A stretch of 32,000 nucleotides of DNA from Thermosulfurimonas dismutans (lineage in GTDB: Bacteria > Desulfobacterota > Thermodesulfobacteria > Thermodesulfobacteriales > Thermodesulfobacteriaceae): contig NZ_LWLG01000019.1 in assembly GCF_001652585.1 (NCBI RefSeq), forward strand, positions 8,101 through 40,100, in the 5' to 3' direction. The position numbers were made by a program, and so were the translations under genes. Below are positions 6,941-32,000 of the stretch, piece by piece. The notes beneath the pieces are model-generated. The model was not told the DNA's origin. It ran no database searches and worked only from the letters and a program-made list of their open reading frames with translations. Positions within the stretch are counted from its first letter, which is position 1; every line of letters begins with the position of its first letter.

Positions 6941-8221
6941 TCAAGTAAGGTCTATTAAGTATTTGTTAACGAATCTTTCGATCTGCTTTTTGAGATCTTC
7001 CCGGTAGCGTTTGCTATAACCTCCCACGATAACCCGAGAGCCCTTTTCGTGAGGTCTAATATAGACCCAAATTACCCGGTGGGTGAAAAAGAAAGCTGCA
7101 AAAATACCAAGGATCATTAATAGAAAACCTATCCATACCAGGATAGCGCCAGGATCCTTTCTCACCTGAAGTCCGGTCATAAAAATGGGCTTGGCTTCCA
7201 ACATCGAAAGAGAAATCTTATGGGGAGAAAAGGAGAGCTCCTGCCGATGGCCTTCAATCAACCAAATCATCTGGGGTTCATGCCCTTCCTTGGTTATCCA
7301 GACCTTGGCCATCCGGAAACCGTGTGCCTCTCCGTACTGGATCAGTCCAATAGTAAGGTCCTCTTCCTCCCAGCTTCCATCACGGAAAGGCTTAATCACT
7401 AAGTCTTTACTCTTGTTACCAATTTCAACCCTTATTTTAATAGCGGCATATTCTTGATAAGAAGATTGATAGAAACGGATTTTTTTATACTCCAAAGGAT
7501 GGTTTACCCTTATTAAATAGTTAAATGATTGGTTTCCATCTATAACGGTTACATGAGAACGATAATCCTTCGGCATGCCATTGGGATAAAATTCAATCTC
7601 GAACTTATCCAGTTTAATATAAAAGGGCAGAGAAATGTAACCCTTCTTTTGGAAAGGAAAAACCTTATTGCTCTTCTCTCCCTCAAGGATATTCATATAA
7701 CCTCGGTAGCCGTAAATAGCCCCAATTAGAGCTCCGATCACAATGACCAAAATGGATCCATGTACAAAATAGACCGAAAAATAGCTCCACCGGAAACGAT
7801 CTTTAACCCCCAAGAAACCCTCTTTAAGGGCCTTGATGTCAAACTCCTTTTCCAAGGAGCTTTTTAATTCCTCTGGGCTCTTAGAAGTAATAATTTCCTT
7901 ACGCATGGGCAACTTTTCAGGATCTATCGACCAAGGATCCCGACGATAGAGTCCTAGAGAAACCGGAAATCTCTTTGCGGAACAAAAGATGAGATTGAGC
8001 AAAAATACTGAAAGAAGTGCAATATACCACCAAGAATGATAAGCATCATAAAGCTGGAAAAAATTAATAATTTTGCCCCAGAAAGATCCATATTTGGCAA
8101 AGTAAAAACCGGGTTCCTTTCCTTGAGGAAGGATTGTTCCTAGAATAGAAGTTGTTGCCAGCGCCAAAAACAGGAAGATGGCCAGTCTGAGAGAGGAAAA
8201 AAAATCAACTATTTTTTTCAT
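6941..8221 (-). CDS. resB: cytochrome c biogenesis protein ResB/Ccs1 family
   Basis: I prefer the ATG at 8221. The resulting N-terminus [34 protein letters not shown] is the canonical ResB N-terminus. The protein also has a large soluble loop and C-terminal TM helices. The listed start at 8320 lies inside tatA. Confidence 0.7.
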
Positions 8222-17048: not shown

Positions 17049-17125
17049 CGGGACGTAGCTCAGCCTGGCAGAGCACTGGCTTCGGGAGTCAGGGGTCGCA
17101 GGTTCAAATCCTGCCGTCCCGACCA
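17049..17125 (+). tRNA. tRNA-Pro (anticodon CGG), CCA encoded
   Basis: I folded the cloverleaf by hand. The acceptor stem is CGGGACG/CGTCCCG and the D arm is GCTC...GAGC. The anticodon stem is CTGGC/GTCAG with loop TTCGGGA (anticodon CGG). The T arm is GCAGG-TTCAAAT-CCTGC, with discriminator A followed by CCA. Confidence 0.9.
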
Positions 17126-17129
17126 AAAA

Positions 17130-17560
17130 TTAACGATTTCTTGAGGACTTACGAAAGATTATTCCTTGCCTAAGGCACTTTTGGAACACCTGTCCTCTAA
17201 CTTCCCAGTAAGTCGCAAAAATTCTGTTGCAATTCATTCTCAATAAGGCGGGTTTCTTCAAATCCATTCCCGATTTTGGGCAATTATTCGCGATTTTCCC
17301 CCACACTCGTGGGCTTAAGGTTGCAAGTGAGAATATAATATCTTTTAAATACAGAAATGAGGAGGCAAGCATGGCTATTGATCAGGCTAGGCACATGAAG
17401 TTGAGTACATAGAACCGGCAAAGTTTTTCAGAAAATCAAATAACTTTTGAGCTGTCTTGAAATTTAGGCCCTTTCGGATAGCGGAGTCAACAAATTTTTC
17501 CCGGTGGAGCTCTAGCTCCTCCCTAAATTTTCTTCCCCAGGCCCGAGTGCTTTTGGTTAG
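17130..17560 (-). pseudogene. decayed internal fragment of a DNA polymerase III alpha (DnaE)-like gene
   Basis: On the minus strand, one frame reads TRAWGRKFREELELHREKFVDSAIRKGLNFKTAQKLFDFLKNFAG and then a stop. This parallels DnaE ...RRAMGKKKxExMxxxRExFVxGAxxxGxxxxxAxxIFDxIxKFAGYGFNKSHA. After frame changes, INSHA and then ...YLK...F.LATLS...GKIANNCPKSGMDLKKP continue the DnaE order (FNKSHA, AYLKAHYP, FMAALLS, DKVxxYIxECxxMGIxVLPP). The fragment has no start codon and at least two frame breaks. Confidence 0.45.
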
Positions 17561-17740
17561 TTGTGGTTATATTCTCAAATGTTAAGAAAACAGTTGCCTT
17601 ATTAAAAATGGATATATCGAGAGGACTTTGTAAAGGTCTCTAAAAAATAGATTTAATCGAGCTAGTTAAACATGAAATAGCACTCTATAGCTGGTAAAAC
17701 GGATAATAATGGCTAAATAGTTCTAAGGAGGCCCTAAGAT

Positions 17741-19162
17741 ATGTTTCCGGAATGGGGTTATTTACTGATGGGTTTTTTGATCGGAGGCGGGGCTTTGTGG
17801 TTACACGCCAAACGGGAAAGGAATGAACTTTTCCAGAAATTTGAAGGCCTGCAAGAAGAACTGATCCAGAAAAAGACGGAGCTGGCGCAGCTCAGTGAAA
17901 GATTGGCCCGAGAAGAGCAGTACAGAGAGAAGCTGGAGACGGAAAAGGCCGAACTCTTCGAGAGACTTGAGGAAGCCCAAAAGGAACTCGCCCTGCGGCA
18001 GGCAGAAATTGCCAAGCTCAAGGAAAGGATAACCCAGGAGGAAGAACATTTCCGGGAAAAACTCGAGATCATAGAGAAGGCCCAAAAGGAGCTGGAAAAC
18101 ACCTTCAAGGCCCTGTCTTCGGAGATTTTTCAGAAAAACACGGAAAATTTCTTAAAGCTAGCCCAGGATCGTCTTTCCGTTTTCAGAGAGGAAATTCAGG
18201 GGCAACTCAAAGCCAAAGAGGAGGCCATTGACCGGCTGACCCAGCCTATAAAGGAGGCCTTGGAGAAGGTAAACCGCGAAATCAAGGAGATGGAGGAGAA
18301 ACGAGAGGGGGCTTACAAAAGTCTTCAAGAGAGCCTCCGAAACCTGGTGGAGGTATATCTCCCAAGGCTTCAAAAAGAGACGGAAAATCTTTCGAGAGCC
18401 CTCAGACAGCCTAGAATAAGGGGCAGGTGGGGAGAAATTCAGCTAAAGCGTGTGGTAGAAATGGTGGGGATGCTTCCTAAGTGTGACTTTGAGGAACAGA
18501 CATCTTTTTCCACCGATGAGAGGACCCTCCGGCCGGACATGATCATCAGGCTTCCAGGAGGGAGGATTATTGCGGTGGACGCCAAGGTTCCCTTTGAGGT
18601 CTACATAGAGGCCATTGAAGAAGAAAACGAGGATGAGGCGCACAAAAAGATACAGGAATATGTGGCGGGGCTCAAAAACCATATTAAAAGTCTATCCCAG
18701 AAAAGATACTGGGAGGCGATAGAGTCCCGGTGGCAAAAGAGCCCGGAATTTGTCATTCTCTTTTTGCCGGCTGAAGGCCTGTTTTCGGCGGCTTTAAAGA
18801 GCGATCCCGAGATCGTGGAGTTCGGTGCCAAACACAAGGTCCTTCTGGCCACCCCGATAACCCTCATAGCCATCCTCAAGGCCGTGGCTTACGCTTGGCA
18901 GGAACAGGAGCTTGCCGAAAACGCGAGGGAGATCGCCCATTTAGGGAAGCAACTTTATGAGCGTCTTAGAGTTCTCACCGAGCACTTCAATGATCTGGGA
19001 AACAGACTAAAGCAGGCGGTAGAGGCCTACAACAAAACCGTGCGTTCTTACGAAAGCCGAATTCTGGTCACCGCCCGGAAGTTTGAGGATTTCCGCATGA
19101 TCTCCCCGGAAAAGAAAATCCCTGACTTAACCGAAATTTCCACCTATCCTTTGGAGAAATAA
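17741..19162 (+). CDS. rmuC: DNA recombination protein RmuC
   Basis: 473 aa with an N-terminal TM helix and a long coiled coil. The RmuC nuclease-like core follows (RGRWGEIQLKRVVEMVGM...RPDMIIRLPGGRIIAVDAKVP...FLPAEGLF). A TAAGGAGG SD is present. Confidence 0.85.
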   Translation: MFPEWGYLLMGFLIGGGALWLHAKRERNELFQKFEGLQEELIQKKTELAQLSERLAREEQYREKLETEKAELFERLEEAQKELALRQAEIAKLKERITQEEEHFREKLEIIEKAQKELENTFKALSSEIFQKNTENFLKLAQDRLSVFREEIQGQLKAKEEAIDRLTQPIKEALEKVNREIKEMEEKREGAYKSLQESLRNLVEVYLPRLQKETENLSRALRQPRIRGRWGEIQLKRVVEMVGMLPKCDFEEQTSFSTDERTLRPDMIIRLPGGRIIAVDAKVPFEVYIEAIEEENEDEAHKKIQEYVAGLKNHIKSLSQKRYWEAIESRWQKSPEFVILFLPAEGLFSAALKSDPEIVEFGAKHKVLLATPITLIAILKAVAYAWQEQELAENAREIAHLGKQLYERLRVLTEHFNDLGNRLKQAVEAYNKTVRSYESRILVTARKFEDFRMISPEKKIPDLTEISTYPLEK

Positions 19163-19316
19163 AAACTTTTCTATCCACTCGAAGATACGTTGTTCCCGTT
19201 CTGGTTTGTCTTTTTTGCAGGTCTATCACCGATGGAATGATATATGGTGGTAGCCTGGGGTCTACGCTTGAGATTGGGGCAGTTTGGGTGTATTAAATTG
19301 TAGTGGAGGTGATGAA

Positions 19317-19535
19317 ATGCGAGCAGTTTTGTCGGTAAGCCTTCCCGAAAAGCTGGCCAGGGAGTTGGAGGCTTTCGCCAAGGAAACCGGCCGCAATAAA
19401 AGCGATATCGTACGAGAGTCTCTAACCCTTTATCTCTGGGAAGCCCGGTTCAAGCGTCTTAGAAAGCAGCTCAGGCCTTTCGCCAAAAAGGCTGGTTTGA
19501 TGACCGAGGAAGATGTTTTTGAGCAGATTTCATGA
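19317..19535 (+). CDS. ribbon-helix-helix (CopG-family) antitoxin
   Basis: I prefer the ATG at 19317 because GGAGGTGA lies upstream. MRAVLSVSLPEKLARELEAFAKETGRNKSDIVRESL fits the RHH beta-alpha-alpha pattern. Its stop overlaps the PIN gene start (ATGA). Confidence 0.7.
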   Translation: MRAVLSVSLPEKLARELEAFAKETGRNKSDIVRESLTLYLWEARFKRLRKQLRPFAKKAGLMTEEDVFEQIS

Positions 19536-19933
19536 GGGTAGTCTTCGATACAAATGTTTTGGTGGCGGCTTTTGTCACGGAAGGATTATGTTCTGTGTTA
19601 CTCGCCCGTGCTCGTCGAGGAGAATTTGATCTTTTCGTTTGCCCGAAGATTTTGGAAGAATTTGAAAGGATTCTATCGGAAAAGATAAAAGTTCCGCGAG
19701 CCCTGATTGAAGAAGCTTTAAGTATGATCTTGGAAGCCTCCGAGATGATACAGCCCACTAGAGCCATTCAAGGAGTTTGCCGCGACGAAGATGATGACCA
19801 GATCCTGGCCTGTGCCCTTTCAGCCGAAGCGGATTACCTCGTGAGCGGGGATAAAGATCTTTTGGAGATTGGTAGCTTTGGAAACCTTAAAATCGTCCCT
19901 CCGAGAGATTTTGAGGCCTTGTTTGAGGATTAA
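19532..19933 (+). CDS. PIN-domain toxin (VapC-like ribonuclease)
   Basis: 133 aa with the acidic PIN residues in VVFDTNVL, DEDDDQIL and SGDKDLL. It is translationally coupled to the upstream RHH gene. Confidence 0.8.
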   Translation: MRVVFDTNVLVAAFVTEGLCSVLLARARRGEFDLFVCPKILEEFERILSEKIKVPRALIEEALSMILEASEMIQPTRAIQGVCRDEDDDQILACALSAEADYLVSGDKDLLEIGSFGNLKIVPPRDFEALFED

Positions 19934-20041
19934 GTATTGCCTAGTGATTCTAGTTTACGGTGCAACTCGCCCCTTTTCTATGGAACTCTTTTTTGTTATG
20001 GTTGGGAAAAGTCAGGGGGGTAAAACGGCCGTCCAAGGCGA

Positions 20042-20320
20042 ATGATAATCCCAGAACCCGGCCAGATAGTAAGGGTAAGGAACCAGACCTTTTTAGTTCA
20101 AGATGTTCACCCCTACTCAAACCCTGAGGCCACCTTTCACAAAGTCACCCTTGAGTCCTTGGAGGATCACCGCTTAGGCACATCCCTTGAAGTTATTTGG
20201 GAGCTTGAAGTCTCTCCCCGGGTCGAAGACGTGATAAGTTTTCCCGACCTTTCGGCCTGGGACCCTCCGGAAAGATTGGCCTCGGGTAAAAATATTTTGG
20301 ATCTGGAGTGGAGATCATGA
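20042..20320 (+). CDS. 92-aa ORF resembling the extreme N-terminus of RM/defence-associated SNF2-type helicases; a possible truncated remnant
   Basis: [17 protein letters not shown]...[23 protein letters not shown]...WDPPERL....ILDLEW recalls the N-terminal domain that precedes the helicase core in such proteins. Here the ORF stops, and its TGA overlaps the hsdM ATG (ATGA). The assignment is by recollection only. Confidence 0.3.
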
Positions 20321-22773
20321 ATAACGGAAAAATCACCTTGAAACAGCTCGAAACACACCTGTTTAAAGCCGCCGATATCCTGAGAGGCAAGATGGATGCC
20401 TCTGAATATAAGGAATACATCTTCGGCATGTTGTTTCTAAAGCGAGTTTCCGATGTCTTTGAGGCCAAGCAGGAAGAACTCAAAGAAAAGTTTAAAGCCC
20501 AAGGCTTTTCGGACCAGGAAGTAGAAGAACTTATCGAAGACCCCAATTTATACGCTGAGACCTTTTTTGTCCCTGAAAGGGCAAGGTGGAAGAACATCCT
20601 AAAACTTAAAGAAGATGTGGGAAACCAGTTAAACAAGGCCCTTTCCGCTTTGGAAGAACACAATCCCGAACTGGAAGGCGTTTTGAGGCATATAGATTTC
20701 AATGCGGTTAAGGGAAAAACCCGCCTCAAAGATCAGCAACTGGTGGATTTGATCCACCACTTCAATAAATACAGGTTAAGAAACGAAGATTTTGAGTTCC
20801 CTGACTTACTGGGAGCGGCCTATGAGTATCTGATTAAAGAATTTGCGGACTCTGCGGGCAAAAAAGGCGGCGAGTTTTATACTCCTTCGCAAGTAGTGCG
20901 GTTAATGGTGAGGCTTGTAAAACCGCAGGAAGGTATGACGGTGTATGACCCAACTTGTGGTTCCGGAGGTTTCCTCATCCAGGCAAGGCAGTATGTGGAG
21001 GAGCAAGGGCAGGATCCGAGAAACCTGGCTCTCTACGGTCAGGAATTGAATGGAGTTACCTGGTCGATCTGCAAGATGAATATGATTCTGCATGATATTC
21101 CCGATGCCTATATAGAGAATGAAGATACCATTACCACTCCTATGTTTGTTGAAAATGGATACATAAAGCGCTTCGACAGGGTTTTGGCCAATCCTCCTTT
21201 TTCTCAGAACTATAGCAAAGCAAACATGCAATATCCTGAAAGGTTCAAGTATGGCTTCACTCCGGAAAATGGAAAAAAAGCCGACTTGATGTTTTTACAA
21301 CACATGATCGCCAGCCTTAAGGATGATGGCGTTATGGCCACCGTAATGCCTCACGGAGTTCTTTTCAGAGGGGGGCAGGAGAAGGCCATTAGAGAAGGAA
21401 TTGTAAAGGATGACCTGATTGAGGCCATAATAGGCCTTCCCCCAAAACTTTTCTATAACACGGGCATACCTGCCTGCATCATAGTGATAAACAAGAGAAA
21501 GCCACCCCATCTCAAAGGAAAAATTCTCTTTATAAATGCTGATCGGGAATACGGAGAGGGAAGAAACCAAAACTATCTTAGGCCTGAAGACATTGAGAAA
21601 ATTGTTACCGTCTTTGAGGAGAAAAAGGAAATTCCGAAGTATTCAAGACTTGTGGATCTCAAGGAAATTGAGGAAAACGATTTTAACCTGAATATAAGAA
21701 GATACGTTGACAACTCTCCGGATCCTGAGATTGAGGACGTCCACGCCCATCTTGTCGGTGGAGTGCCCAAAAGAGAAGTAGAAATCTACAAAAAACAGAT
21801 GGAGAAGTTCAGAATCGGCCCGGAGGTTTTATTAAAGGAGAAAGATGACCGGTATTTTGAATTCAAAGAGATAAGCGAAAAAAACAAAATAAGAGAGATA
21901 GTTGAAAATCACAGTGGAGTTAAAGGAGTAATCTCAGAGCATTTTGAAAGGCTTTCCGAATGGTGGGAGAAGGTAAAAAAGGAGATAGAGGGTTTTCACG
22001 GCGGGAGCAACCTCTGGGATTTCAGAAACAGGGCAATAGCTGATTTGAAAGAAAAGTTACTGCCTCTTGGCGTTCTGGATGAGTTTCAGATTGCTGGCGT
22101 ATTTGTCAACTGGTGGGAAGCCCTGCGATACGACTTTAAGACCATCATTTCCTCCGGCTGGAGTAAAAGGCTGATTGAAGACGACAGGATTAAGAAAAAA
22201 TTCTTTTCTCAAGATTTAGAGGAGATCGAAGAGCTAGAGAGCAGGATTGCAGAAGTTGAAGGCGAACTGAACGAACTTCTAGATGAAGTTGAGGACTGGG
22301 ATGAGGAAGAATACGGAAAGAAGACCGCCAGTAAAGTGAAGAATTACCTGAAACAGATCGCCAAAGATTTGCGAGCCACTTTGCAGGAATCCGCCCTTAG
22401 AGAAGCCTCAAAGTGGGAAAGTTTGATCCAAAAAATAGAAAAAAAAGAAAGAGAACTGAGAAAGATTAAAAGAGACCTGAGAACAAAGGAGCAAGAGCTT
22501 GAAGAGAAAATAAAGCACAAGCGAGAATCTTTAACCGAAGGAGAGGCGAAAGAACTGCTCCTTGAGAAGTTTTACGATTTGATAAGCCAGCAGTTAGAGA
22601 AGTATCTGAATGCTGAAAAGAAAGACCTGATTAAGATTTTTGAGAAGCTGTGGGACAAATACAGCGTTTCACTGGAACAGTGGAAGAAAGAGCGAGATGA
22701 GGAAGTGCGAAAGCTTGACGATTTTCTGATAAGGCTGGGGTACTATGGAATATCTGCAAAAACTAGGACTTAA
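20317..22773 (+). CDS. hsdM: type I restriction-modification system methyltransferase subunit HsdM (long form with a coiled-coil C-terminal extension)
   Basis: I prefer the ATG at 20317 because GGAGTGGAG lies upstream. It has an HsdM_N region ([33 protein letters not shown]), SAM motif I ([11 protein letters not shown]) and catalytic motif IV (NPPF in LANPPFSQ). The last ~300 aa are E/K-rich coiled coil. Confidence 0.9.
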
Positions 22774-22792
22774 TGAGAGGTAGATTAAGCTA

Positions 22793-22957
22793 ATGAAATT
22801 TGTAAAAGAAAACAAGGTTATAACCCTGTCCTCCGCAAAAAATTTGATACCTGATGTTTCGGACAAGACACTTTATAGAGACTTGCAGGAGTTGGTTAGA
22901 AAAAAGATACTAAAAGAAATTGGTGAAAAGAAGGGAAGAAAATATGTTCCTGCATAA
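22793..22957 (+). CDS. 54-aa winged-helix/HTH protein (Fic/AlbA_2-type C-terminal wHTH-like)
   Basis: This ORF is not in the track because it is shorter than 60 aa. It reads MKFVKENKVITLSSAKNLIPDVSDKTLYRDLQELVRKKILKEIGEKKGRKYVPA. The ...TLYRDLxELVxKxILxxxGxxKGxKY pattern is a common wHTH found at the C-terminus of Fic and AlbA_2 proteins. Confidence 0.45.
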   Translation: MKFVKENKVITLSSAKNLIPDVSDKTLYRDLQELVRKKILKEIGEKKGRKYVPA

Positions 22958-23052
22958 CAGGAATTTATCAGACATAACAACCATATTTTGGGCATTTATA
23001 TGAATGGAACAAAATAAGGTGATATAGTTTAATAAGAGGAGAGATAACCGAA

Positions 23053-23868
23053 ATGTACGAAGACTGTTTTTTGGCTTACCTGGACATACTGGGTTTTAAG
23101 GATAAAATAAAAGAGACAGAAATAAACCTAAAAGAATTAAAAACTTTAATTGAAGCTTTAAAAATAAATACGAAGTTCACACAATCAGGTGGAAAAAAGA
23201 CAACAGCTAGTGGGACGCTCGAAATACGGAGTTTCTTCTTTTCAGACAGTTTCCTTTTCATGATGAAAGCAAACAAAGAAAATCTACCACATCTCTTTCT
23301 TATTATCCGGTATCTGCAAGATAGACTTTGGGAATACAAACTGTGTTTAAGAGGTGCTATGGTAAAGGGGAAGATGTACTGGCCTAATATAAGAGAGAAC
23401 ATAATTTTAGGTCCTGCTATGATTAAAGCTTATAAGCTGGAGTCTGAAGTTGCAATATACCCAAGAATAATTGTAAGCGAAGATCTATACCGCTACATCA
23501 AAGATAAGAAAATTTCTGCATATCCTGTGTCCGAAGAGGGGGAATTAAAAGAATTTATCAAAAAAGACAAAGATGGCGTTTATTTTTTTGATATACTTAA
23601 TCCAAATATTTTGAGAAAAAAAGGAGAAAAGATAATTACGATAAATGAAAGAGAAAACATGATAGATAATGATACAAAATACGGGAAGTCTTTTAGTATT
23701 ACATGGAATTCATCTGAAGTTAGTAATTACGAGAATATCATAACTACAGTAAAAGAAATAGTCAAAAATAGTAAGGGAAATCAAAATCCGGTGGTTAAGC
23801 AAAAATATAGTTGGTTGTCGTACTATTTAGAAGAAGTACAAGAAAGAGAAAAGGAGGGCAAGAAATAA
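23053..23868 (+). CDS. hypothetical protein with class III nucleotidyl-cyclase / GGDEF-like palm motifs plus an unassigned C-terminal half
   Basis: 271 aa with AGGAG ~11 nt upstream. The motif order matches a cyclase homology domain: AYLD11ILGFK (cf. FxDIxGFT), FFFSD65SFLF (cf. IGDAYM), CLRGAMVKGKMYW (cf. RIGIHTGxV) and GPAMIKAYKLESEVAIYPRIIVSEDLY (cf. GDTVNxASRMESxGxPGxIxVSExTY). Calling it a CDS is safe. The fold call is a by-eye inference. Confidence 0.5.
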   Translation: MYEDCFLAYLDILGFKDKIKETEINLKELKTLIEALKINTKFTQSGGKKTTASGTLEIRSFFFSDSFLFMMKANKENLPHLFLIIRYLQDRLWEYKLCLRGAMVKGKMYWPNIRENIILGPAMIKAYKLESEVAIYPRIIVSEDLYRYIKDKKISAYPVSEEGELKEFIKKDKDGVYFFDILNPNILRKKGEKIITINERENMIDNDTKYGKSFSITWNSSEVSNYENIITTVKEIVKNSKGNQNPVVKQKYSWLSYYLEEVQEREKEGKK

Positions 23869-24019
23869 TAGATAACATTTCTGAGGATTGTTCAAAGAAA
23901 ATAGTGGCAAAAGAGCCGGTTTCTAGTATGAGATTGTAAAGTAATTGCACATATTGCATAATGATTACACATAAATTGCACAATGAATGTAATACTAAAA
24001 GAGCAAAAAGGGTATAAAA

Positions 24020-25312
24020 ATGCCTGAAGATGTAAAAGTGTCTGAGGAGTGGAGAAAAATACCATTGCTTGAAAAGTTAGCATTTATTAAAGGTAAAGCT
24101 CCAAGAAAATTTTACAATTTCAAAGAAAAAAATACAATAAGGTATTTAACCCCTGAATATTTGCGAGGGAGAAATCACGAAACTCTTTATTGCAACATTA
24201 ATGAAGCTGAGATAGTCAATGATGATGTAGTCCTACTATGGGATGGGTCTAATGCTGGTGAAATCTTCTTTGCAAAAGATGGAGCAATTGCTTCAACTAT
24301 GGCAAAAATTGAAATTGATGAAAAATTACATAAACGATTTTTCTACTACTACTTGAAATTCCATGAACCGATTTTCAAATATCAAATAAAGGGCTCAGGA
24401 ATTCCACACGTTGAAAAGGATATCTTTGGATTGCTGCCTAATACGTTCCCACCCCTCCCCGAACAACGCAAAATCGCCGAAATTCTTGAAACAGTTGATA
24501 ACGCCATAGAAAAGACGGACAGGATCATAGAGAAATACAAGCGAATCAAGCAGGGCTTGATGCAGGATTTGCTGACCAAAGGTATAGACGAAAACGGACA
24601 GATAAGAAGCGAAGAAACGCACAAGTTCAAGGATTCGCCCCTCGGCAGGATTCCGGAGGAGTGGGAGGTTGTGGAGTTAGATGAAGTGGCAGATATAAGA
24701 CTGAGTAATGTTGATAAAAAAATTAAGCCTAATGAGGTTACAGTTAAACTCTGCAACTATCTGGAAGTTTATCAAAATGAATACATAACTTCAACACTAA
24801 ACTTTATGAGAGGGACAATCACAAAAAACGAAAAAGGAAAATTTATGATTAATAAAGGCGATGTAATAATAACAAAAGATTCAGAAACGTTTGAAGATAT
24901 TGCCAAACCTACTTATATTAAGGATGAGATAAAGGATTTGGTATGTGGTTATCATCTTTGTTTACTAAAACCGTATACCAATTTGGTTAATGGGTTATAT
25001 TTGGCTAAGATTATAGGATTCCATCGAGTGAATAAACATTTCCAGAATTTAGCAAATGGAATTACGAGATTTGGTTTATCAAAAGACACCATTGCTAATG
25101 CTTTAATCCCTCTCCCACCACTCCCAGAACAAAAACGCATCGCCTCAATTCTCTCGCAAATAGACGAAACCATTGAAAAAGAGCAAAAATATAAAGAAAA
25201 ACTTGAAAGAATTAAGCGGGGACTGATGGAAGATTTACTTACGGGAACGATCAGAGTTAGCTCTTTAATTGAGGGGGGACCGGATGAAAATAAAAAGAAT
25301 ACATATCCATAA
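24020..25312 (+). CDS. hsdS: type I restriction-modification system specificity subunit HsdS
   Basis: 430 aa with two variable target-recognition domains. They are separated and followed by the conserved helices LPPLPEQRKIAEILETVDNAIEKTDRIIEKYKRIKQGLMQDLLT and LPPLPEQKRIASILSQIDETIEKEQKYKEKLERIKRGLMEDLLTG. Confidence 0.9.
   Translation: MPEDVKVSEEWRKIPLLEKLAFIKGKAPRKFYNFKEKNTIRYLTPEYLRGRNHETLYCNINEAEIVNDDVVLLWDGSNAGEIFFAKDGAIASTMAKIEIDEKLHKRFFYYYLKFHEPIFKYQIKGSGIPHVEKDIFGLLPNTFPPLPEQRKIAEILETVDNAIEKTDRIIEKYKRIKQGLMQDLLTKGIDENGQIRSEETHKFKDSPLGRIPEEWEVVELDEVADIRLSNVDKKIKPNEVTVKLCNYLEVYQNEYITSTLNFMRGTITKNEKGKFMINKGDVIITKDSETFEDIAKPTYIKDEIKDLVCGYHLCLLKPYTNLVNGLYLAKIIGFHRVNKHFQNLANGITRFGLSKDTIANALIPLPPLPEQKRIASILSQIDETIEKEQKYKEKLERIKRGLMEDLLTGTIRVSSLIEGGPDENKKNTYP
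25172..25246 (+). repeat. hsdS 3' conserved-helix segment, copy 1 of a direct repeat (partner 27134-27208)
   Basis: By-eye alignment shows a near-identical core, GAGCAAAAATAYAAAGAAAAACTTGAAAGAATTAAGC, with roughly 85% identity over ~75 nt. Confidence 0.75.
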
Positions 25313-27044
25313 TTTTCGTTCTATAAAGGATGTAAGTATTGAATTGGAGAATTACTCTCTACTTATTGGAGAAAATAATGCTGGGAAAACAAATATTATG
25401 AGGGCGTTAAGAGTTTTTTATGATGATTTGAAATATGATCCGAAAAAAGATTGGCCCAAATTTAATGATGTTAGTGATGACGAAGCATGGATAGAGATAA
25501 AATATTTAACTACGGATGAAGAACAAGCGCAATTAAAGAAGGAGTATAGGAGCAATGACAATATTTTGAAGGTGAGAAAAATTCTAAAGACCAATAAAGA
25601 ACCGTTCAAATCGAAAGTTAAAGCAAATCAAAGCAATATTTTCGCTTATGAGAATGAAACTTTATCGGAAAATTTCTTTTATGGAGCAAAGAATATATCT
25701 CAATCTAAATTAGGGACCATTATTTACATACCCGAAATAAGTAAAATTGAGGAATCCATCAAAATGACTGGACCTTCTCCTCTTAGGAATATACTGCATT
25801 TTGTAATTAAAAAAATAATAGAAAAAAGTGAGAGTTATGCATCTCTTAGATCTGCATTTGAAGATTTTAATAAAAATTTTAAGGAAGAGTCTATTGATGG
25901 AATTTCCCTTGCAAATTTAACAGAAGAAATAAACAAAGAACTTAAAGAATGGAATGTGAAATTTGGGTTAGATATAAATCCGATAAGAATAGATGATATC
26001 ATTGCAAAACTTGTCTCTCATTATATTGAGGATAGCCAATTAGATGATCAAAGATTAAGCATTGATTCTTTTGGGCAGGGATTGCAACGACACTTGATAT
26101 ATACACTTATAAAATTATCTACAAAATATACTGATACTCCGAAAACTGCAAAAAAGGATTTTTCTCCTGATTTCACGTTAATTTTATTTGAAGAACCAGA
26201 GGCTTTTTTACATCCTTCGCAACAAGAAAAATTAAATATCAGTTTAGCTAAATTGGCAGAAGATGAAAGTCAACAGATATTAATTACAACACATTCTCCT
26301 ATGTTTGTAAGCAAAAATATAAGCAATATTTCTTCTTTGATAAAAGTCAACAGAGATAAAGAAACAAAAACTTTTCAGATCAAAAAAGAAGAAATTGATT
26401 CTTTATACGATGAGAACACTTCTATGTTTCAATTTTTCTTAGATAAATTAAATTCTCAAGATATAGGTGACGAATTAAAACAAAAAATAAGAAAGAGAAA
26501 TCTGGCAAGAGAAACAGACAATGTGGAAATCAAATTGAAAGAAGAATCTTTTAAATATTTTCTGTGGCTTGATAGCGAGAGATCAAATCTATTTTTCGCT
26601 AAACATGTTGTTATTTGTGAAGGTGCTACGGAAAAAATATTTTTTGATTATTTGATAAATACAAAATGGTCCGATCTAAAAGACCGACATATTTATTTTT
26701 TGGATTCTATGGGGAAATTTAATGTTCATCGATATATGAACCTTTTTAACTTATTGGGGATTAACCATTCCGTATTAATAGACAGAGATAAAGATATAGA
26801 AATTCACGATCTAATAAATAGCTTCATAGAAGATAATAAAAATGAATTTACCTGCAAAATACATTATTTTGACCCTGATATAGAAGGTTTTTTAGGTATT
26901 GAAAAACCAAAAGATAGTAGACAGAAACCATTAAATATAATGGTTAAATACTCAGAAGGACAAATACCTGAATCTAAAATAAATGAATTGCGAGCTATTA
27001 TAGAAGGATTATTAAAGCATGACCAAAATGTACCGCAAGCTTGA
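25284..27044 (+). CDS. OLD-family nuclease (ABC-type ATPase fused to a TOPRIM domain)
   Basis: I prefer the ATG at 25284 because GAGGGGGGA lies upstream. The N-terminus is MKIKRIHIHNFRSIKD. It has Walker A (GENNAGKTN), Walker B/D-loop (LILFEEPEAFLHP), TTHSP, and TOPRIM motifs (VVICEGATEKIFF ... LIDRDKD). It overlaps the hsdS 3' end by 29 nt and terminates inside the hsdR-5' stub. Confidence 0.8.
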   Translation: MKIKRIHIHNFRSIKDVSIELENYSLLIGENNAGKTNIMRALRVFYDDLKYDPKKDWPKFNDVSDDEAWIEIKYLTTDEEQAQLKKEYRSNDNILKVRKILKTNKEPFKSKVKANQSNIFAYENETLSENFFYGAKNISQSKLGTIIYIPEISKIEESIKMTGPSPLRNILHFVIKKIIEKSESYASLRSAFEDFNKNFKEESIDGISLANLTEEINKELKEWNVKFGLDINPIRIDDIIAKLVSHYIEDSQLDDQRLSIDSFGQGLQRHLIYTLIKLSTKYTDTPKTAKKDFSPDFTLILFEEPEAFLHPSQQEKLNISLAKLAEDESQQILITTHSPMFVSKNISNISSLIKVNRDKETKTFQIKKEEIDSLYDENTSMFQFFLDKLNSQDIGDELKQKIRKRNLARETDNVEIKLKEESFKYFLWLDSERSNLFFAKHVVICEGATEKIFFDYLINTKWSDLKDRHIYFLDSMGKFNVHRYMNLFNLLGINHSVLIDRDKDIEIHDLINSFIEDNKNEFTCKIHYFDPDIEGFLGIEKPKDSRQKPLNIMVKYSEGQIPESKINELRAIIEGLLKHDQNVPQA

Positions 27045-27126
27045 CGAAAAACACTATGCGGAAAACCCCTTCCTGGCCCAGCTCAAGAAGCTCGGCTGGA
27101 AGATTTACAGGCAGAACAAAGACAAT
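27026..27126 (+). repeat. copy A of the hsdR 5'-end direct repeat (partner 27890-27990)
   Basis: Aligned by eye over 101 nt, I count about 10 mismatches (~90% identity). Both copies start at AAATGTACCGCAAGCTTGACGA. Confidence 0.85.
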
Positions 27127-27138
27127 AAGGGAAATTGA
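27028..27138 (+). pseudogene. vestigial hsdR 5' end (33 hsdR codons followed by a premature stop)
   Basis: It encodes [36 protein letters not shown]. The intact HsdR N-terminus is [36 protein letters not shown]... Confidence 0.75.
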
Positions 27139-27244
27139 AAAGGAGCAAAAATACAAAGAAAAACTTGAAAGAATTAAGCAAGGATTGATGGAGAATTTGT
27201 TGACTGGAAAGGTGAAAGTTAATCACCTGATTAAGGATGCTTAA
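27127..27244 (+). pseudogene. vestigial hsdS 3' end (C-terminal conserved helix only)
   Basis: It encodes ...REIEKEQKYKEKLERIKQGLMENLLTGKVKVNHLIKDA*, which parallels the HsdS C-terminus ETIEKEQKYKEKLERIKRGLMEDLLTG. It is out of frame with the hsdR stub. The track ORF 27041-27244 is a chimera of the two remnants. Confidence 0.75.
27134..27208 (+). repeat. hsdS 3' conserved-helix segment, copy 2 of a direct repeat (partner 25172-25246)
   Basis: See the copy 1 entry. Both copies have the same orientation. Confidence 0.75.
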
Positions 27245-27256
27245 GTAAAGAAAATT

Positions 27257-27553
27257 ATGAAAAGCCTCGAAGAAATAAGAAAATTTATAAAGAATCAAAA
27301 AAAAGAACTGGAGCAAAGATTCGGAATCAAAACGATCGGTATTTTCGGTTCTTATGCCAGAAATGAACAAACCGAAAAAAGCGATCTGGACGTTCTTATA
27401 GAATTTAAAGAAGGATATGAGACCTTCAGAAATTACATGCAGTTAAAATTTTATCTTGAAGATAATCTCGGAATGGAAGTTGACCTGGTTATAGCTTCTA
27501 CCTTAAAAGAAAGATTGAAACCTTATATAATGAAAGAAGTCTTATATGTCTAA
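27257..27553 (+). CDS. mntA: minimal nucleotidyltransferase antitoxin (MNT/MntA)
   Basis: 98 aa. [23 protein letters not shown] is the GS-x(10)-DxD pol-beta NTase signature. Confidence 0.85.
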
Positions 27554-27908
27554 GAAAAGAAGTTTAAAGCTTTACCTTGAAGATATTCTTGAAGAGATCC
27601 AACGAATTAAAAGATTTACCGAAGGAGTTGTCAACTATGAAGATTTTAAGAATAATGAGCTGTTATTGTACGCCGTTTTGAAATCTCTGGAAAATATTGG
27701 AGAAGCAGTTAAAAATATCCCCGAAGACAAAAGAAAGTTGTACCCTTTACCCTGGAGAGAAATAGCCGGAATGAGAGATATACTTATTCATGAATATTTT
27801 GGAATCAACACCAAAATTGTCTGGGATATTATAAAAACTGAATTGCCGGAACTTGAAAAGGCCATTGTTTTCTTGATTGAAAAGGTCGGAAATGTACCGC
27901 AAGCTTGA
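27546..27908 (+). CDS. hepT: HEPN-domain toxin (DUF86/HepT)
   Basis: 120 aa with the Rx4HxY motif in [11 protein letters not shown]. It overlaps mntA by 8 nt. Its last codons (NVPQA*) lie inside the hsdR 5' end. Confidence 0.85.
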
Positions 27909-27990
27909 CGAGGAACACTATGTAGAAAACCCCTTCCTTGCCCAACTTCAAAAGCTCGGCTGGAAGATTTACAGGCAGAACAAAGATAAT
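27890..27990 (+). repeat. copy B of the hsdR 5'-end direct repeat (the functional hsdR start)
   Basis: See the copy A entry at 27026-27126. Confidence 0.85.
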
Positions 27991-30900
27991 CCTGAAGAGG
28001 TCAGAGAAATCCTCTCCTTCAACCCCTCTTTTGAGCCCGTTTATGGTGGCTACGAAAAATTCAGAGAAAGTTTTAGAGAAGTAATCCTTGAGTATGTTCT
28101 GAAAGACTCGATAAAGAGAATAAACCCTTGGATCGAAGAAGACCAGATTAACGAGGTCGTAAGAAGAATCACCACGCCTACCGCAAACTCTCTCCTTGAG
28201 GCCAATAGAGAAATTCACGATCTTCTTTTAGAAAACACTTCGGTTTCTGAAAACAGAAAGACCGGAGAAAGAAGCCCCACCGTAAGATTTATTGACTTCG
28301 AGAACCCGGAAAACAATTCTTTTATAGCCATCTCGCAATTCAAGGTGAACATCCCCGGAACAGAGAAGCACATTATTCCGGACATCGTTCTTTTTGTAAA
28401 TGGCTTGCCTTTGGTAGTTGTGGAATGCAAATCTCCCGCTATAGCCGACCCGATGACAGAGGCCATTACCCAGCTCATGCGATACAGCAATCGGCGAGGC
28501 GAGAAGGAGGGGAACGAAAAGCTCTTCTGGTACAATCTCTTCATGGTGGCTACCTCCAAGCAGGTAGCCAAGTACGGCTCCATCACCGCGGGATACGAGC
28601 ACTTTGTGGAGTGGAAAGCCCCCTATCCCTTCAGTTTGTCAGATATAGACGAAAACAAGACCTCGATCACAAGTCAACAGGTTCTAATTCAGGGAATGCT
28701 CTCCAAAAATAACCTGCTGGATATTCTCCACACCTTCACCCTTTTCAAAGAGGATTCAAAAGGCGGAACCATAAAGGTCGTTCCGAGGTATCAACAGTTT
28801 AGAGCAGTTAAGAAGATCATAAAAAGGATAAAACAAGGCCAAACTCCGGCCGAAAGGGGAGGAATTGTCTGGCACACCCAGGGTTCAGGAAAATCTCTTA
28901 CCATGATGTTCACTGTAAGAGCAATGTATCACGATCCTGAACTTGCAAACTTCAAAGTAGTTTTTGTCACCGACAGAAGAGATCTGGAAAAGCAACTGAG
29001 AGAGACCTCAAAAAGTGTTGGCTACACGGTAAAGCTCGCCCATAACATAGAAAAACTCAAAGAATTGCTAAGAACGAACACACCTGATCTGGTTATGGGA
29101 ATGATCCATAAGTTTCAGGAAAGGGAACTTAAAAGAAAGTTTCCCGTGCTCAATGAATCTCCCGACATTCTAATAATGATTGATGAGGCTCACAGGACGC
29201 AGTACAAACTTTTGGGAGCCAACTTAAGAAAAGCCTTACCCAACGCCACCAAGATTGCTTTCACAGGCACGCCCATTGAAAAGACCGAAAAAACTTTCGG
29301 AGACTACATAGATAAGTACAGCATAAGGCAGGCGGTTGAGGATGGGGTAACCGTTGAAATTGTTTATGAAGGAAGGGTTCACAGTGCGGAACTTTCGGAT
29401 GAAGAGGCGGTGAATGCAAAGTTTGAAGACGTTTTCTCCATGCTTGACGCCGAGCAGAAGTCAAGGATCATGGGGAGATACACGTGGAGGGCTTATCTTG
29501 AGGACGAGAACGTCATCAGAGATAAAGCCAAAGATATGATTGACCATTATGTGAAACACGTTTTTCCTAACCGTTTCAAGGCTCAGGTGGTTGCGGTTTC
29601 AAGACTTGCGGCCATAAGGTACAAAAAAGCCCTGGAAGAGGCCTTGAAGGAGAAAATTGAAGAGCATGAAAGGGAAGGCTACCCGGATGAAGGTTTGAAA
29701 CTGCTCAAAAGATTAGAAGTGGCCACGGTTATATCTGCGGCGGCGAATGACCCTCCAGAGTATCGCCCCTACACTGACCCCAAAGAACATGAGAGGGTTA
29801 TTAAAAGCTTTAAACTTCCTTTTGACCAAACTGACGATAGCGGCCTTGAAGGAAATGTAGGCATTATTGTAGTAAATAATATGCTTATAACCGGTTTTGA
29901 TGCCCCACTGGAACAGGTAATGTATCTTGATAATGTAATAAAAGAACACAATTTGCTACAAGCAATTGCCAGAGTCAATAGAGTTTACCAGGGCAAAAGT
30001 TGTGGCTTTGTCGTTGATTACGTAGGGGTGCTTAAGCATCTTAGAGAAGCGCTAGCTATTTATGCGGATGAAGATATCGATGAAATAAGTCAAGTAGTTG
30101 TTAATAAAGCGAAAAGCGTTGATGAATTAAAATTCTGGCATACCCATCTTGACAGCTTCTTTGAAAAATTTGGTGTTGAGAACTGGAGAGAAAATATTGA
30201 CGAATGCATAGATATTCTTGTTGATGAAGAAGTTAGAGATGAATTTATAACTCTCGTCAGAAAATTTAATAATGCCGTAGATAAAGTGCTCCCGGATCCA
30301 GAAGCTCTAAAATATGTTACAGATTTGAAAATCATAAATTTCATTAAAGAATCCGCTAGAAATAGATATAGAGATGACAAGCTCAGTATAAGAGATGCAA
30401 GTAAAAAAATAAGAGAAATTGTCGAAGAATATCTTATTTCGAAGGGGGTTGACCCAAAGATTCCTCCTACTCCACTCTTTTCTGAGAGCTTTATACAAAA
30501 AGTTAAAAAGAAAAAATCGCCCAAAGCGAGAGCAGAGGAACTCAAGTATGCAATTATAGAACACATAGAGAAACACTATGAAGAAGATCCTGAATTTTAC
30601 GAAAGATTTTCAGATAGATTGAAAAGGATACTTGAGGAATACAAGGAGAATTGGGAATTGCTTGCTGTTGAGTTAGAAAAGCTTAGAAACGAGATGAAAA
30701 AGGGTAGAGAGGCAGAAGAAACATTTGGTTTTGATCCCAAGAAAGAAATGCCATTTTTTGGGTTACTCAAGCAGGAGATATATGGGAAAGATCCCATTGA
30801 AAAACTTGGAAAAGATGACATCGATTTACTTGTGAGTTTAACAAAAGATGTTGTTGAAATCATCAAAAAAGAGATTCAATATGTTGATTTTTGGGATAAT

Positions 30901-31107
30901 TACACCAAGCAAAAAAGATTGAAGGCCTACCTCATTTCTCATTTCCTGGGGGCTATCCAGCCAAACAAACCTTCCAAAACCCATGTTTTTAAGGTGAAGG
31001 AGGAACCGGCACCATATCTTACCACCCATAAGGGTCTACTGTTCAGAAAAAGGAACGAAATAGCTCAAAAATTGCTGGAACTCGCATATCATGTTTATGC
31101 GGGATGA
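27892..31107 (+). CDS. hsdR: type I restriction-modification system endonuclease/translocase subunit HsdR
   Basis: I prefer the ATG at 27892, since the track start at 27877 is a TTG. It has a PD-(D/E)xK nuclease motif ([18 protein letters not shown]), helicase motif I ([11 protein letters not shown]) and a DEAH box (MIDEAHRTQ). It also has later SF2 motifs ([19 protein letters not shown]) and a helical C-terminal domain. Confidence 0.92.
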
Positions 31108-31111
31108 TGAT

Positions 31112-31789
31112 ATGGAAACAGGAATCAAGATCGAAAAGATAATAAGATCAAGGAGGAAGACCGTCGCCCTCCAGATAACCGATGACGCAACTTTGATCGT
31201 TAGGGCGCCATTTGAAGTAAACGAACAAACCATAAAAAATATTGTGACCAGGCACCTAAATTGGATAAGGAAAAAGAGAGATGAGATTCTTTCGAGAGAT
31301 CCCAAGTTTGTTAAAAAGGAGTTTGTAAACGGGGAAGGCTTTCTTTATCTTGGCAAATATTACAGATTAACCATCGTTGACGGACAGAGTGAACCATTAG
31401 TGTTCAAAAACGGTTTCTTTCTTTCGAGAGCCTATCTACCAATCGCAAGAGAGGTTTTTGTTAATTGGTACAGAGAAAAGGCTTATGAAAAGATTGTAGA
31501 AAGGGTCGAATGGTACGCCAAAAAGAGAGGGTTCAGATACAATAGGATTAACATCACAAATGCACAAAAAAGATGGGGTTCTTGCTCGCCTAAAGGAAAC
31601 TTAAATTTCTCCTGGCGACTGATTATGGCTCCGTTACCGGTCATAGATTATGTTGTGGTTCATGAGCTTGTCCATCTCGAAGAGAAGACTCATACAAAAT
31701 CGTTCTGGAATAAAGTGAAAATGCTTATGCCAGATTATGAGAAACATCAAAATTGGTTAAAGAATAATGGCTATCTTTTGAGGTTATAG
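31112..31789 (+). CDS. DUF45/YgjP-like (M48-related) zinc metallopeptidase
   Basis: It has HELVHLEEKTH (HExxH), an RRKTVALQI N-terminal strand and WGSCSPKGNLNFSWRL. The start is uncertain: 31112 gives METGIKIE..., and 31091 or 31097 are alternatives that overlap the hsdR end. Confidence 0.8.
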   Translation: METGIKIEKIIRSRRKTVALQITDDATLIVRAPFEVNEQTIKNIVTRHLNWIRKKRDEILSRDPKFVKKEFVNGEGFLYLGKYYRLTIVDGQSEPLVFKNGFFLSRAYLPIAREVFVNWYREKAYEKIVERVEWYAKKRGFRYNRINITNAQKRWGSCSPKGNLNFSWRLIMAPLPVIDYVVVHELVHLEEKTHTKSFWNKVKMLMPDYEKHQNWLKNNGYLLRL

Positions 31790-31795
31790 TAAAAA

Positions 31796-32000
31796 ATGAT
31801 TAGAGACTCGTACAGTGCCCCCTCCAGGACGGCACAGGGTATAATCCAGGGAGGAGGGGAAAATGAGTACACCAGAACTAGAAGTCAAGCGCTGGCAGCC
31901 AAAAGGGGGAAGAGTTTAAGTGCCCTTATCAGGGAACAGCTTGAAGCCCTGATTCAGGAAAAAATGAATTTGATATCAAGACATCAACTCCAAAAACTCC
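31796..32000 (+). CDS. open-ended ORF containing an RHH-antitoxin-like helix pair; possibly frameshifted
   Basis: The frame is open from ATG 31796 to the window edge and contains ALAAKRGKSLSALIREQLEALI, the pattern of RHH helix A/B. The only strong SD (GGAGGAGGGG) serves a different-frame ATG at 31863, which gives an 18-aa peptide (MSTPELEVKRWQPKGGRV*) ending at 31919. Confidence 0.25.
   Translation, partial: MIRDSYSAPSRTAQGIIQGGGENEYTRTRSQALAAKRGKSLSALIREQLEALIQEKMNLISRHQLQKL

Follow-up and report, generated by a model that had tools for sequence, protein, structure and literature searches.

A Type I restriction-modification (RM) operon with additional defence-type genes between its hsd genes is located in the 32,000-nt stretch of Thermosulfurimonas dismutans DNA analysed here (assembly GCF_001652585.1, contig NZ_LWLG01000019.1, forward-strand positions 8,101 to 40,100). 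We refer to the whole stretch as the window, and all coordinates are those of the window. The genes are arranged, all on the + strand, in the order hsdM, a 54-amino-acid (aa) open reading frame (ORF), a 271-aa ORF, hsdS, an OLD nuclease gene, a 220-nt recombination scar, MNT, HepT, hsdR and a YgjP-like gene. The extra genes occupy two positions, slot 1 at the M-S junction and slot 2 at the S-R junction. In our judgement it is likely that these modules are autonomous and merely share the operon, and that recombination through the hsd genes brings about the turnover of cargo. Because the scar joins two S-cargo-R units, cargo appears to move with the conserved hsd genes as arms, and not by site-specific insertion.

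A preliminary description of the window presented the RM locus as a landing pad for four unrelated modules, filling five kilobases in addition to hsdS. The ORFs that it listed are all present at their positions on the + strand, and the overlaps are as it noted, with 29 nt shared by OLD and hsdS (25284-25312) and 8 nt by HepT and MNT; the overlap of HepT with hsdR is 17 nt. The interval between hsdM and hsdR indeed measures 5.1 kb, but this includes the 1.3-kb hsdS; the extra DNA amounts to about 3.8 kb, and cargo-free relatives have 1.2-1.4 kb in the same interval. Instead of four modules, we find three intact ones (the 271-aa cyclase-fold protein, OLD and MNT/HepT), one decayed gene tail (the winged-helix 54-aa ORF) and one recombination scar. 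Genes were identified by profile matches to Pfam, PADLOC (PADLOC-DB 2.0.0) and NCBIfam (20.0). The PADLOC search that the preliminary description proposed recovers OLD (model Old) and MNT (model PDC-S09), and leaves the 271-aa protein without a match.

The recombination scar between OLD and MNT

The 220-nt scar, a feature absent from the preliminary description, is made up of hsdR codons 1-33 joined to the final ~36 codons of hsdS. Both parts were found by a repeat search as diverged copies of hsd sequence present elsewhere in the operon. Direct repeat D1 (27026-27126 versus 27890-27990; 101 nt, 90% identity) links the hsdR' relic with the 5' end of the intact hsdR, and direct repeat D2 (25172-25259 versus 27134-27221; 88 nt, 83%) links the 'hsdS relic with the 3' end of the intact hsdS. 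MNT starts 12 nt after the end of the 'hsdS relic (27244). OLD and HepT both end in …NVPQA and a stop because both reading frames extend 17 nt into the start of an hsdR, which for OLD is the hsdR' relic. The earlier statement that both genes end inside hsdR holds for HepT, and for OLD with the qualification that the hsdR sequence in question is a second, truncated 5' end of the gene (27026-27126).

The two halves of the slot-2 stack have separate counterparts among related loci, which carry L numbers in this text. The OLD gene together with the hsdR' relic (25284-27125) forms one collinear high-scoring segment pair with OLD-hsdR of L101, with 84.7% DNA identity. In this metagenome-assembled contig an OLD that is 84% identical over its full length is followed by hsdR up to the contig end (HsdR 80% over 76 aa). 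On the other side of the fusion, window positions 27133-30948 form one high-scoring segment pair with L015 5096-8925, and 27134-28849 is collinear with L001 10431-12167; L015 and L001 both have the order hsdS 3' end-MNT-HepT-hsdR, without OLD. The hsdR' relic can be aligned with the 5' end of hsdR in L101, L019 and L015 as far as about 27117, which places the breakpoint at about 27113-27120, where a few bases may be microhomologous. Because each half is collinear with a separate relative, the slot-2 stack reads as a join of two units, hsdS-OLD-hsdR' (unit A) and 'hsdS-MNT-HepT-hsdR (unit B).

A similar arrangement is found in L067, where the order is hsdS, Mrr, an 'hsdS relic of ~53 codons, MNT, HepT and hsdR. 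This relic is an independent analogue of the scar in the window.

The most economical mechanism that we infer is a crossover combined with an illegitimate join. A unit hsdS-OLD-hsdR from a related locus would have joined a resident hsdS-MNT-HepT-hsdR. One of the joins would be a homologous crossover upstream, through hsd homology, and the other would be illegitimate, at about 27113-27120, linking the interior of the incoming hsdR to a point near the 3' end of the resident hsdS. The landing pad of the preliminary description, in the sense of insertion, gives way to a different picture, as the scar and the collinearity point to the exchange or joining of whole S-cargo-R units through hsd genes. 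No integrase or transposase gene is present within the hsdM-hsdR interval. DarTG2 lies between hsdS and hsdR in the Type I RM island of enteropathogenic Escherichia coli, and this site was proposed as a potential recombination hotspot (PMC12255303). The scar supports this idea, and would represent a direct sequence record of how a cargo stack forms inside a Type I RM operon, with the hsd genes serving as recombination arms.

An assembly artefact was considered as the source of the repeats and rejected, as the copies have diverged (90% and 83%), are collinear with different relatives and have an analogue in L067. In addition, the hsdR' relic keeps its start codon and the overlap with the upstream stop, forming a 36-codon ORF (27028-27138, +) from which an N-terminal peptide of HsdR could be made.

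Two cargo slots in a Type I RM operon family

The locus belongs to a widespread family of Type I RM operons with the arrangement long hsdM-hsdS-hsdR-ygjP. HsdM matches the PADLOC model MTase_I (PDLC03031) from end to end (protein residues 8-813, model positions 2-834) and exceeds the cut-off of TIGR00497 hsdM with 272 bits. HsdS matches PADLOC Specificity_I at 2.3e-72, and HsdR scores 521 bits against TIGR00348 hsdR and aligns with its relatives over residues 1-1071. The three subunits are intact, lie above the cut-offs (Pfam, PADLOC, NCBIfam) and align over their full length with relatives, which identifies the system as Type I RM. The YgjP-like gene overlaps the end of hsdR and directly follows hsdR in nearly all related loci of sufficient length; it appears to be the fourth and last backbone gene of the operon family.

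A metagenome scan with HsdM found >573 relatives, and the best 80 of these (HsdM 60-86% identity) were analysed. HsdM, HsdS, HsdR and YgjP were mapped by tblastn, and the ORFs between hsdM and hsdR were clustered, with representatives annotated by Pfam. This comparison, which the preliminary description had called for, yields 47 distinct complete M-to-R intervals. All share the backbone hsdM-hsdS-hsdR-ygjP, and the modules are variably present at fixed positions: 19 intervals are empty, 8 have cargo in slot 1 only, 9 in slot 2 only and 11 in both. The extra genes in the window share the features of embedded cargo. They are on the + strand between hsdM and hsdR, they vary across the 47 operons, and MNT matches PDC-S09, a candidate family from a survey of embedded genes (10.1101/2024.01.29.577857).

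Each slot has its own repertoire. In slot 1 the commonest cargo is a protein of 437-475 aa with SLFN_AlbA_2 (Schlafen/AlbA_2) and HATPase_c_4 domains; Fic/DOC proteins (~375 aa) and frequent fragments of either type are also found. The 271-aa family occupies slot 1 in two of the 47 intervals, those of the window and L001. The commonest slot-2 cargo is MNT/HepT, found in the window, L001, L015, L028 and L067. GmrSD-type enzymes, Mrr, a 23S_rRNA_IVP protein and a 174-aa protein without identity are also found in slot 2, and OLD occurs there in the window only. The interval in the window is the fifth largest of the 47; those of L043 and L077, which hold GmrSD + Mrr stacks without MNT/HepT and without scars, are larger. 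The stack had been called unusual, and this stands for its exact combination, which is not seen elsewhere. A comparable load is present in L043 and L077 of the same family, and in L004 and L007, whose stacks belong to other Type I RM families.

The distribution of cargo does not follow backbone similarity. The closest relative, L015 (HsdM 86% identical), has an empty slot 1, and the 271-aa gene is present in L001 (HsdM 77%). At the DNA level, the cyclase-fold genes of L001 and the window are 84.7% identical and their hsdM genes 74%. From these identities and the empty slot 1 of L015, it follows that cargo is exchanged faster than the backbone diverges. An operon family with two slots and such a repertoire could provide a natural collection of defence genes embedded in RM operons.

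The 54-aa ORF illustrates decay in slot 1. It is 67% identical (E 7e-20) to residues 385-433 of a 437-aa protein in L043, which has SLFN_AlbA_2 and HATPase_c_4 domains by Pfam and is encoded by an intact gene at the same position between hsdM and hsdS. A tblastn search with the ORF also finds L041, L056 and L058, and similar tails or fragments are present in L056 and L058. The ORF itself has no Pfam match. By its alignment it is the leftover 3' end of an earlier slot-1 cargo and not an independent module, and it could still be translated. We considered an independent, RptR-like winged-helix regulator and rejected it, as the ORF aligns to the C-terminal tail of the 437-aa protein from the same slot.

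In two of the related loci (L078, 4454-8510; L079, 13256-17312), two adjacent GmrSD-type genes of 614 and 752 aa fill the S-R junction. Moreover, L075 (3713-5530) and L081 (2384-2869, - strand) have half-size or inverted hsdS fragments beside a full hsdS, which suggest hsdS shuffling in the operon family.

The cargo modules and their known counterparts

The 271-aa protein in slot 1 has no match among the Pfam, PADLOC or NCBIfam models. Its family is large, as one search yields 374 relatives and the other, at E<1e-3, yields 4454 cluster representatives. The AlphaFold2 model, based on 34 sequences, has a predicted local distance difference test (pLDDT) score of 92. In a Foldseek comparison with the PDB, 49 of the top 50 matches listed are class III adenylyl/guanylyl cyclases and the remaining one is a Pycsar uridylate cyclase (8jsz), with E values down to 1.6e-5 and target-normalised TM-scores of up to 0.63 on single-domain cyclase chains. 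The model and the Foldseek matches together identify a cyclase-homology palm fold. At the level of sequence profiles, the 271-aa protein itself does not reach PF00211, and three of 34 family members match it weakly (best E 9.4e-4). The family profile finds no cyclase and nothing meaningful among PDB sequences. One distant family member carries the UniRef name guanylate cyclase domain protein.

Invariant residues in the family include D11, D65, R100, G101, G120, E130, P137 and R138. In a motif alignment, D11 and D65 would correspond to the two metal-binding aspartates of class III cyclases, and the cyclase motif G-x-x-x-N-x-A-x-R-L-E-S would be equivalent to G120-P-A-M-I-K-A-Y-K128-L-E130-S, so that the transition-state Arg is apparently replaced by Lys. 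The C-terminal domain of ~80 aa contains an invariant K-Y-x-W. Thus the protein shares with class III and Pycsar cyclases the palm-type fold and the two invariant, putatively metal-binding Asp positions, but differs from them in not reaching PF00211, in lacking a conserved transition-state Asn, in the apparent change of Arg to Lys and in its additional C-terminal domain. The model and the conserved residues predict that it is probably an active palm-type nucleotidyltransferase or cyclase.

Unlike Pycsar cyclases, the 271-aa protein has no adjacent gene for a cyclic-nucleotide-binding effector. The neighbours of the family vary (Fic, Schlafen/AlbA, RhuM, YhcG, hsdS, Abi_C), and because no conserved effector partner is found among them, the pairing that characterizes Pycsar does not apply. 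What recurs is the RM context. In seven of the 11 distinct close-relative contexts (window included), the cyclase-fold gene lies between hsdM and hsdS. In six of the seven it is directly followed by hsdS, among them the window, L004, L007, L010 and L099, and two small ORFs intervene in L001. The L005 contig has a decayed hsdM beside it and stops short of any hsdS, and L014 has two distant tandem paralogues at the same position. The hosts include an archaeon and an Aminicenantes bacterium, and their HsdM is only ~35% identical to that of the window. The other contexts are a Type IIG-like methyltransferase with PLD-SNF2 (L098), the neighbourhood of Abi_C (L095) and of Schlafen/AlbA (L011), and a locus with outer-membrane genes downstream of a close relative (L002). 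A scan of viral contigs found no relatives, and a BFVD search returned only giant-virus cyclase/GGDEF-type matches.

The RM-embedded contexts (seven of 11, with an eighth in a methyltransferase/helicase-nuclease system) would suggest that the protein may sense, or back up, restriction failure through a nucleotide signal. The family is strongly RM-embedded and is found in none of Pfam-A, NCBIfam 20.0 and PADLOC-DB 2.0.0, and is a candidate new nucleotide-signalling or nucleotidyltransferase defence gene. A wider proposal, in which the family is a new RM-associated signalling/nucleotidyltransferase defence component with such a role, instead of generic cargo, and in which, as the hsdR'/'hsdS scars might suggest, toxin-antitoxin cargo (MNT/HepT) cannot in general be displaced, so that hsd operons accrete around it, is tentative, and as a whole we doubt it more than we believe it.

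A particularly filled relative is the Aminicenantes Type I RM locus in L007 (6541-19305). Schlafen/AlbA, a 91-aa ORF and a homologue of the cyclase-fold gene lie between its hsdM and hsdS, and a Hachiman-like HamA and helicase pair and an IS200-like gene lie between its hsdS and hsdR, making this stack heavier than that of the window.

The first module in slot 2 has the domains of an OLD nuclease, AAA_15 (5.7e-34, residues 6-347) and OLD-like_TOPRIM (7e-17, residues 442-507), and matches PADLOC Old at 7.6e-62. Its translation contains the Walker A motif GENNAGKT, the Walker B motif ILFEEPE, the TOPRIM Glu and DRD. The best match among PDB sequences is 6p74 (1.3e-14), the OLD of Thermus scotoductus. 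Its structure paper (PMC7049728) classes this protein as Class 1, and uses the presence or absence of a downstream UvrD/PcrA-like helicase gene to tell Class 2 from Class 1. In the window no helicase gene lies downstream of OLD; the hsdR'/'hsdS relic, MNT and HepT are found instead. With its ATPase and TOPRIM domains and no such helicase downstream, the protein agrees with Class 1 OLDs, such as those of Thermus scotoductus (6P74) and Vibrio cholerae (PMC12392090). Its nuclease and anti-phage activities are predicted here from sequence motifs, and it differs from these OLDs in being embedded in and overlapping hsd genes, with an ORF that ends in an hsdR relic.

Homologues with 68-70% identity (Thermosipho, metagenomes) lie outside hsd loci, beside DUF3644 genes. 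In the closest of these (L103, 8001-10983; L105, 789-3765; Thermosipho japonicus and metagenomes), OLD is followed each time by the HEPN-type DUF3644. This recurrent OLD-HEPN adjacency echoes the order of OLD and HepT in the window.

The second module in slot 2 has the layout of a Type VII toxin-antitoxin pair, with an MNT gene (GS...DxD) directly 5' of a HEPN (R-x4-6-H) gene. MNT matches PADLOC PDC-S09 at 7.6e-37 and contains a GS-x10-DLD motif; HepT contains R-x4-H (RDILIH) and has no match among PDB sequences. The gene order and overlap are those of the Type VII MntA/HepT pair of the Shewanella SO_3165/SO_3166 type, whereas the scores against NCBIfam MntA_antitoxin (49.8 bits) and HepT_toxin (41.5 bits) lie under the 60-bit cut-offs, and the pair is sited inside an RM operon. 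On these scores the two proteins are family-level relatives, and not equivalogs, of MntA and HepT. In three related loci MNT is kept while HepT is truncated (L017, 7505-7651, ~49 codons) or absent (L061, 8538-8855; L064, 4742-5059). Loss of HepT ahead of MNT fits a toxin-antitoxin pair, which is expected to shed its toxin first.

Genes embedded in Type I RM loci have well-known precedents. In the EcoprrI locus, which has the order hsdM-hsdS-prrC-hsdR, prrC encodes the PrrC anticodon nuclease, and the rlo genes of Campylobacter are also embedded in Type I RM loci. The position of the latent PrrC nuclease gene, between hsdS and hsdR, is matched in the window. PrrC combines an ABC-type ATPase and a HEPN nuclease in one polypeptide; both domain types are present here but split over two proteins, with the ATPase fused to TOPRIM in OLD and the HEPN domain forming a separate HepT that has MNT as its partner. 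No PrrC-like single polypeptide with ATPase and HEPN domains is found among the window ORFs. Physical or regulatory coupling to the RM enzyme is the defining property of PrrC, and the gene distribution does not suggest it here. The functional coupling put forward in the preliminary description finds no evidence in our comparison, in which members of both the OLD and the cyclase-fold family are also seen away from hsd loci.

Its remark that accessory ORFs embedded in hsd loci are already known is borne out by published work on Type I RM, and our locus is a well-filled further case of this established phenomenon. A guilt-by-embedding survey of Type I RM, BREX, DISARM and Hma loci describes accessory genes that are likewise nested and co-oriented (96.7% of those surveyed), including ABC ATPase-TOPRIM, GmrSD and HEPN proteins (Payne, Hughes, Fineran & Jackson 2024, 10.1101/2024.01.29.577857). 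Cyclases are not mentioned in its main text, and hsdR'/'hsdS scars are not described there. In addition, TgvAB is embedded in the Type I RM locus of the Vibrio cholerae VPI-2 island (PMC11411939). TgvAB and DarTG2 each form an autonomous module, of the defence or toxin-antitoxin kind, within a Type I RM cluster, as we propose for the modules here, and the GmrSD pair in slot 2 of L078 and L079 is TgvAB-like. The window differs from both in its cargo (OLD, MNT/HepT and the cyclase-fold protein), in having two filled slots and in the scar that documents a join.

Alternative explanations and operon surroundings

Most likely, each module is a defence layer that works autonomously, and the operon's transcription is shared among them. 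The RM enzyme would cut unmethylated DNA, OLD would act as an ATP-dependent nickase/nuclease, HepT would be an RNase restrained by MNT, and the cyclase-fold protein would probably be an active nucleotidyltransferase or cyclase. The cargo position between hsdS and hsdR, which is that of prrC in EcoprrI, raises the question of a guard of the PrrC type, in which the RM complex keeps one or more of OLD, HepT and the cyclase-fold protein latent until a phage anti-restriction protein disables it, the whole forming one integrated system. The start/stop overlaps of hsdS with OLD and of HepT with hsdR are in line with such a guard, as are the reports that PrrC is almost exclusively embedded in Type I RM loci and the placement of the cyclase-fold gene between hsdM and hsdS in seven of 11 contexts, across several lineages and unrelated hsd backbones. 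However, this same family accompanies HsdM proteins that share only ~35% identity with that of the window, a point against any specific protein-protein fit, and it also occurs in a non-Type I methyltransferase/PLD-SNF2 system and beside Abi_C. Moreover, the close OLD homologues (68-70%) sit outside hsd loci beside DUF3644, 19 of the 47 operons do without any cargo, and L017, L061 and L064 have lost HepT but still have MNT. We regard an integrated guard as unlikely.

Addiction could also build a stack. MNT/HepT would then act as an anchor, recombinants that replace it would be killed, and new cargo could be added only beside it, which would explain why the scarred stacks retain it. Two independent stacks, in the window and in L067, keep an 'hsdS relic-MNT-HepT-hsdR arrangement downstream of newer cargo, decaying pairs lose the toxin and keep the antitoxin (L017, L061, L064), and MNT/HepT is the commonest slot-2 cargo in the family. 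The scarred cases known number just two, though, the GmrSD + Mrr stacks of L043 and L077 have neither MNT/HepT nor scars, and the NCBIfam equivalog cut-offs for MntA and HepT are not reached. Such accretion would complement recombination of autonomous modules through the hsd genes, but as an explanation for the stack we give it a small chance. That the extra ORFs are inert, decaying hitch-hikers, junk between RM genes, is very improbable. Decay is common in the slots, as seen from the winged-helix tail, the Fic and Schlafen/AlbA fragments in relatives and the hsdR'/'hsdS relic; but the three main modules are full length with catalytic motifs (OLD; HepT R-x4-H; MNT GS...DLD; D11/D65 of the cyclase-fold protein), conserved relatives of the cyclase-fold protein number in the hundreds and its fold is predicted with confidence, and OLD is 84% identical over its full length to its homologue in L101.

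Several points weigh against our preferred reading, that is, autonomous modules whose cargo turns over through the hsd genes. The deletion collapse of two tandem hsd loci is an alternative that leaves an identical scar. The two hsdR 5' copies are 90% alike, about the same as the intact hsdR 5' end and that of L101 (90.6%). Because the hsdR 5' copies are equally similar, the assignment of copy to cargo rests on collinearity and not on identity; comparing the two hsdR 5' and the two hsdS 3' copies with relatives did not resolve which copy is older, whereas collinearity resolved the assignment. ORFs of the related loci were called crudely, as longest ORFs grouped by BLAST, and the comparison covers only the best 80 of the >573 matching loci. 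For the cyclase-fold protein, the conserved class III Asn is replaced by Ile, Val or Leu at position 124, which makes cyclase activity uncertain.

The features of the operon and its left flank are collected in Table 1.

Table 1 Coordinates of the operon features and of the genes on the left side
Feature	Position	Strand	Basis or remark
tRNA-Pro(CGG)	17049-17125	+	
RmuC	17741-19162	+	
RHH/PIN_3 toxin-antitoxin pair	19284-19933	+	Pfam
92-aa DrmD-like ORF	20042-20320	+	N-terminus of DISARM DrmD/SNF2 helicase only
hsdM, long form (821 aa), C-terminal coiled-coil extension	20308-22773	+	Pfam HsdM_N + N6_Mtase
54-aa winged-helix ORF	22793-22957	+	3' remnant of Schlafen/AlbA_2 + HATPase_c_4 gene
271-aa cyclase-fold protein, C-terminal extension ~80 aa, intact slot-1 cargo	23053-23868	+	AlphaFold2/Foldseek
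hsdS, full length, two target-recognition domains	24020-25312	+	Pfam Methylase_S, two stretches
Class 1-type OLD nuclease (ABC ATPase + TOPRIM), slot-2 unit A	25284-27044 (from ATG)	+	Pfam, PADLOC
hsdR' relic, start codon + first ~33 codons, right end of unit A	27028-27120	+	Repeat D1
'hsdS relic, last ~36 codons + stop (ending …EIEKEQKYKEKLERIKQGLMENLLTGKVKVNHLIKDA and stop), left end of unit B	27121-27244	+	Repeat D2
MNT-type nucleotidyltransferase (antitoxin-like), slot-2 unit B	27257-27553	+	Pfam NTP_transf_2 5.2e-18
HepT-type HEPN RNase (toxin-like), 120 aa, stand-alone	27546-27908	+	Pfam HepT-like 1.1e-27
hsdR, full-length restriction/translocase subunit	27892-31107 (from ATG)	+	Pfam HSDR_N, SWI2_SNF2, ResIII, T1R_D3-like, T1RH-like_C
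YgjP-like (DUF45) metallopeptidase	31091-31789	+	Pfam YgjP-like 3.6e-59

The operon genes either overlap or are separated by gaps of 12-151 nt, and the cargo region has a GC fraction of 0.28-0.36, versus 0.42-0.50 in the flanks. No terminator-like hairpin is found on the + strand in 19000-32000; the 14 terminator candidates are all on the opposite strand, and their number equals the shuffled expectation. A promoter scan gave promoter-like sites at chance level and is uninformative. The co-orientation, the tight packing and the absence of + strand terminator-like hairpins are compatible with co-transcription as one operon.

The tRNA-Pro(CGG) gene, RmuC and the RHH/PIN_3 pair (17049-19933) lie directly 5' of the hsd operon, and the region around it looks like a defence island adjoining a tRNA gene. 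The 92-aa DrmD-like ORF stops 13 nt into hsdM and is cut off at the hsdM start. It matches positions 12-93 of the 1040 in the PADLOC DrmD model (4.9e-18) and NCBIfam DISARM_DrmD (6.8e-16), with the match confined to the first ~80-90 residues of DrmD/DrmA-type helicases. No counterpart was found among the 80 related hsd loci. The ORF is left-edge context of the hsd locus and lies outside the operon cargo, and the hsd operon may have landed in or beside a decayed DISARM-like gene.

Within the operon, a perfect 16-nt inverted repeat (TCTTTTAGTATTACAT / ATGTAATACTAAAAGA) has its arms at 23689-23704 and 23987-24002. One arm is located in the cyclase-fold coding region and the other 18 nt 5' of the hsdS start codon, and long-range RNA pairing of the two arms could possibly affect hsdS translation.

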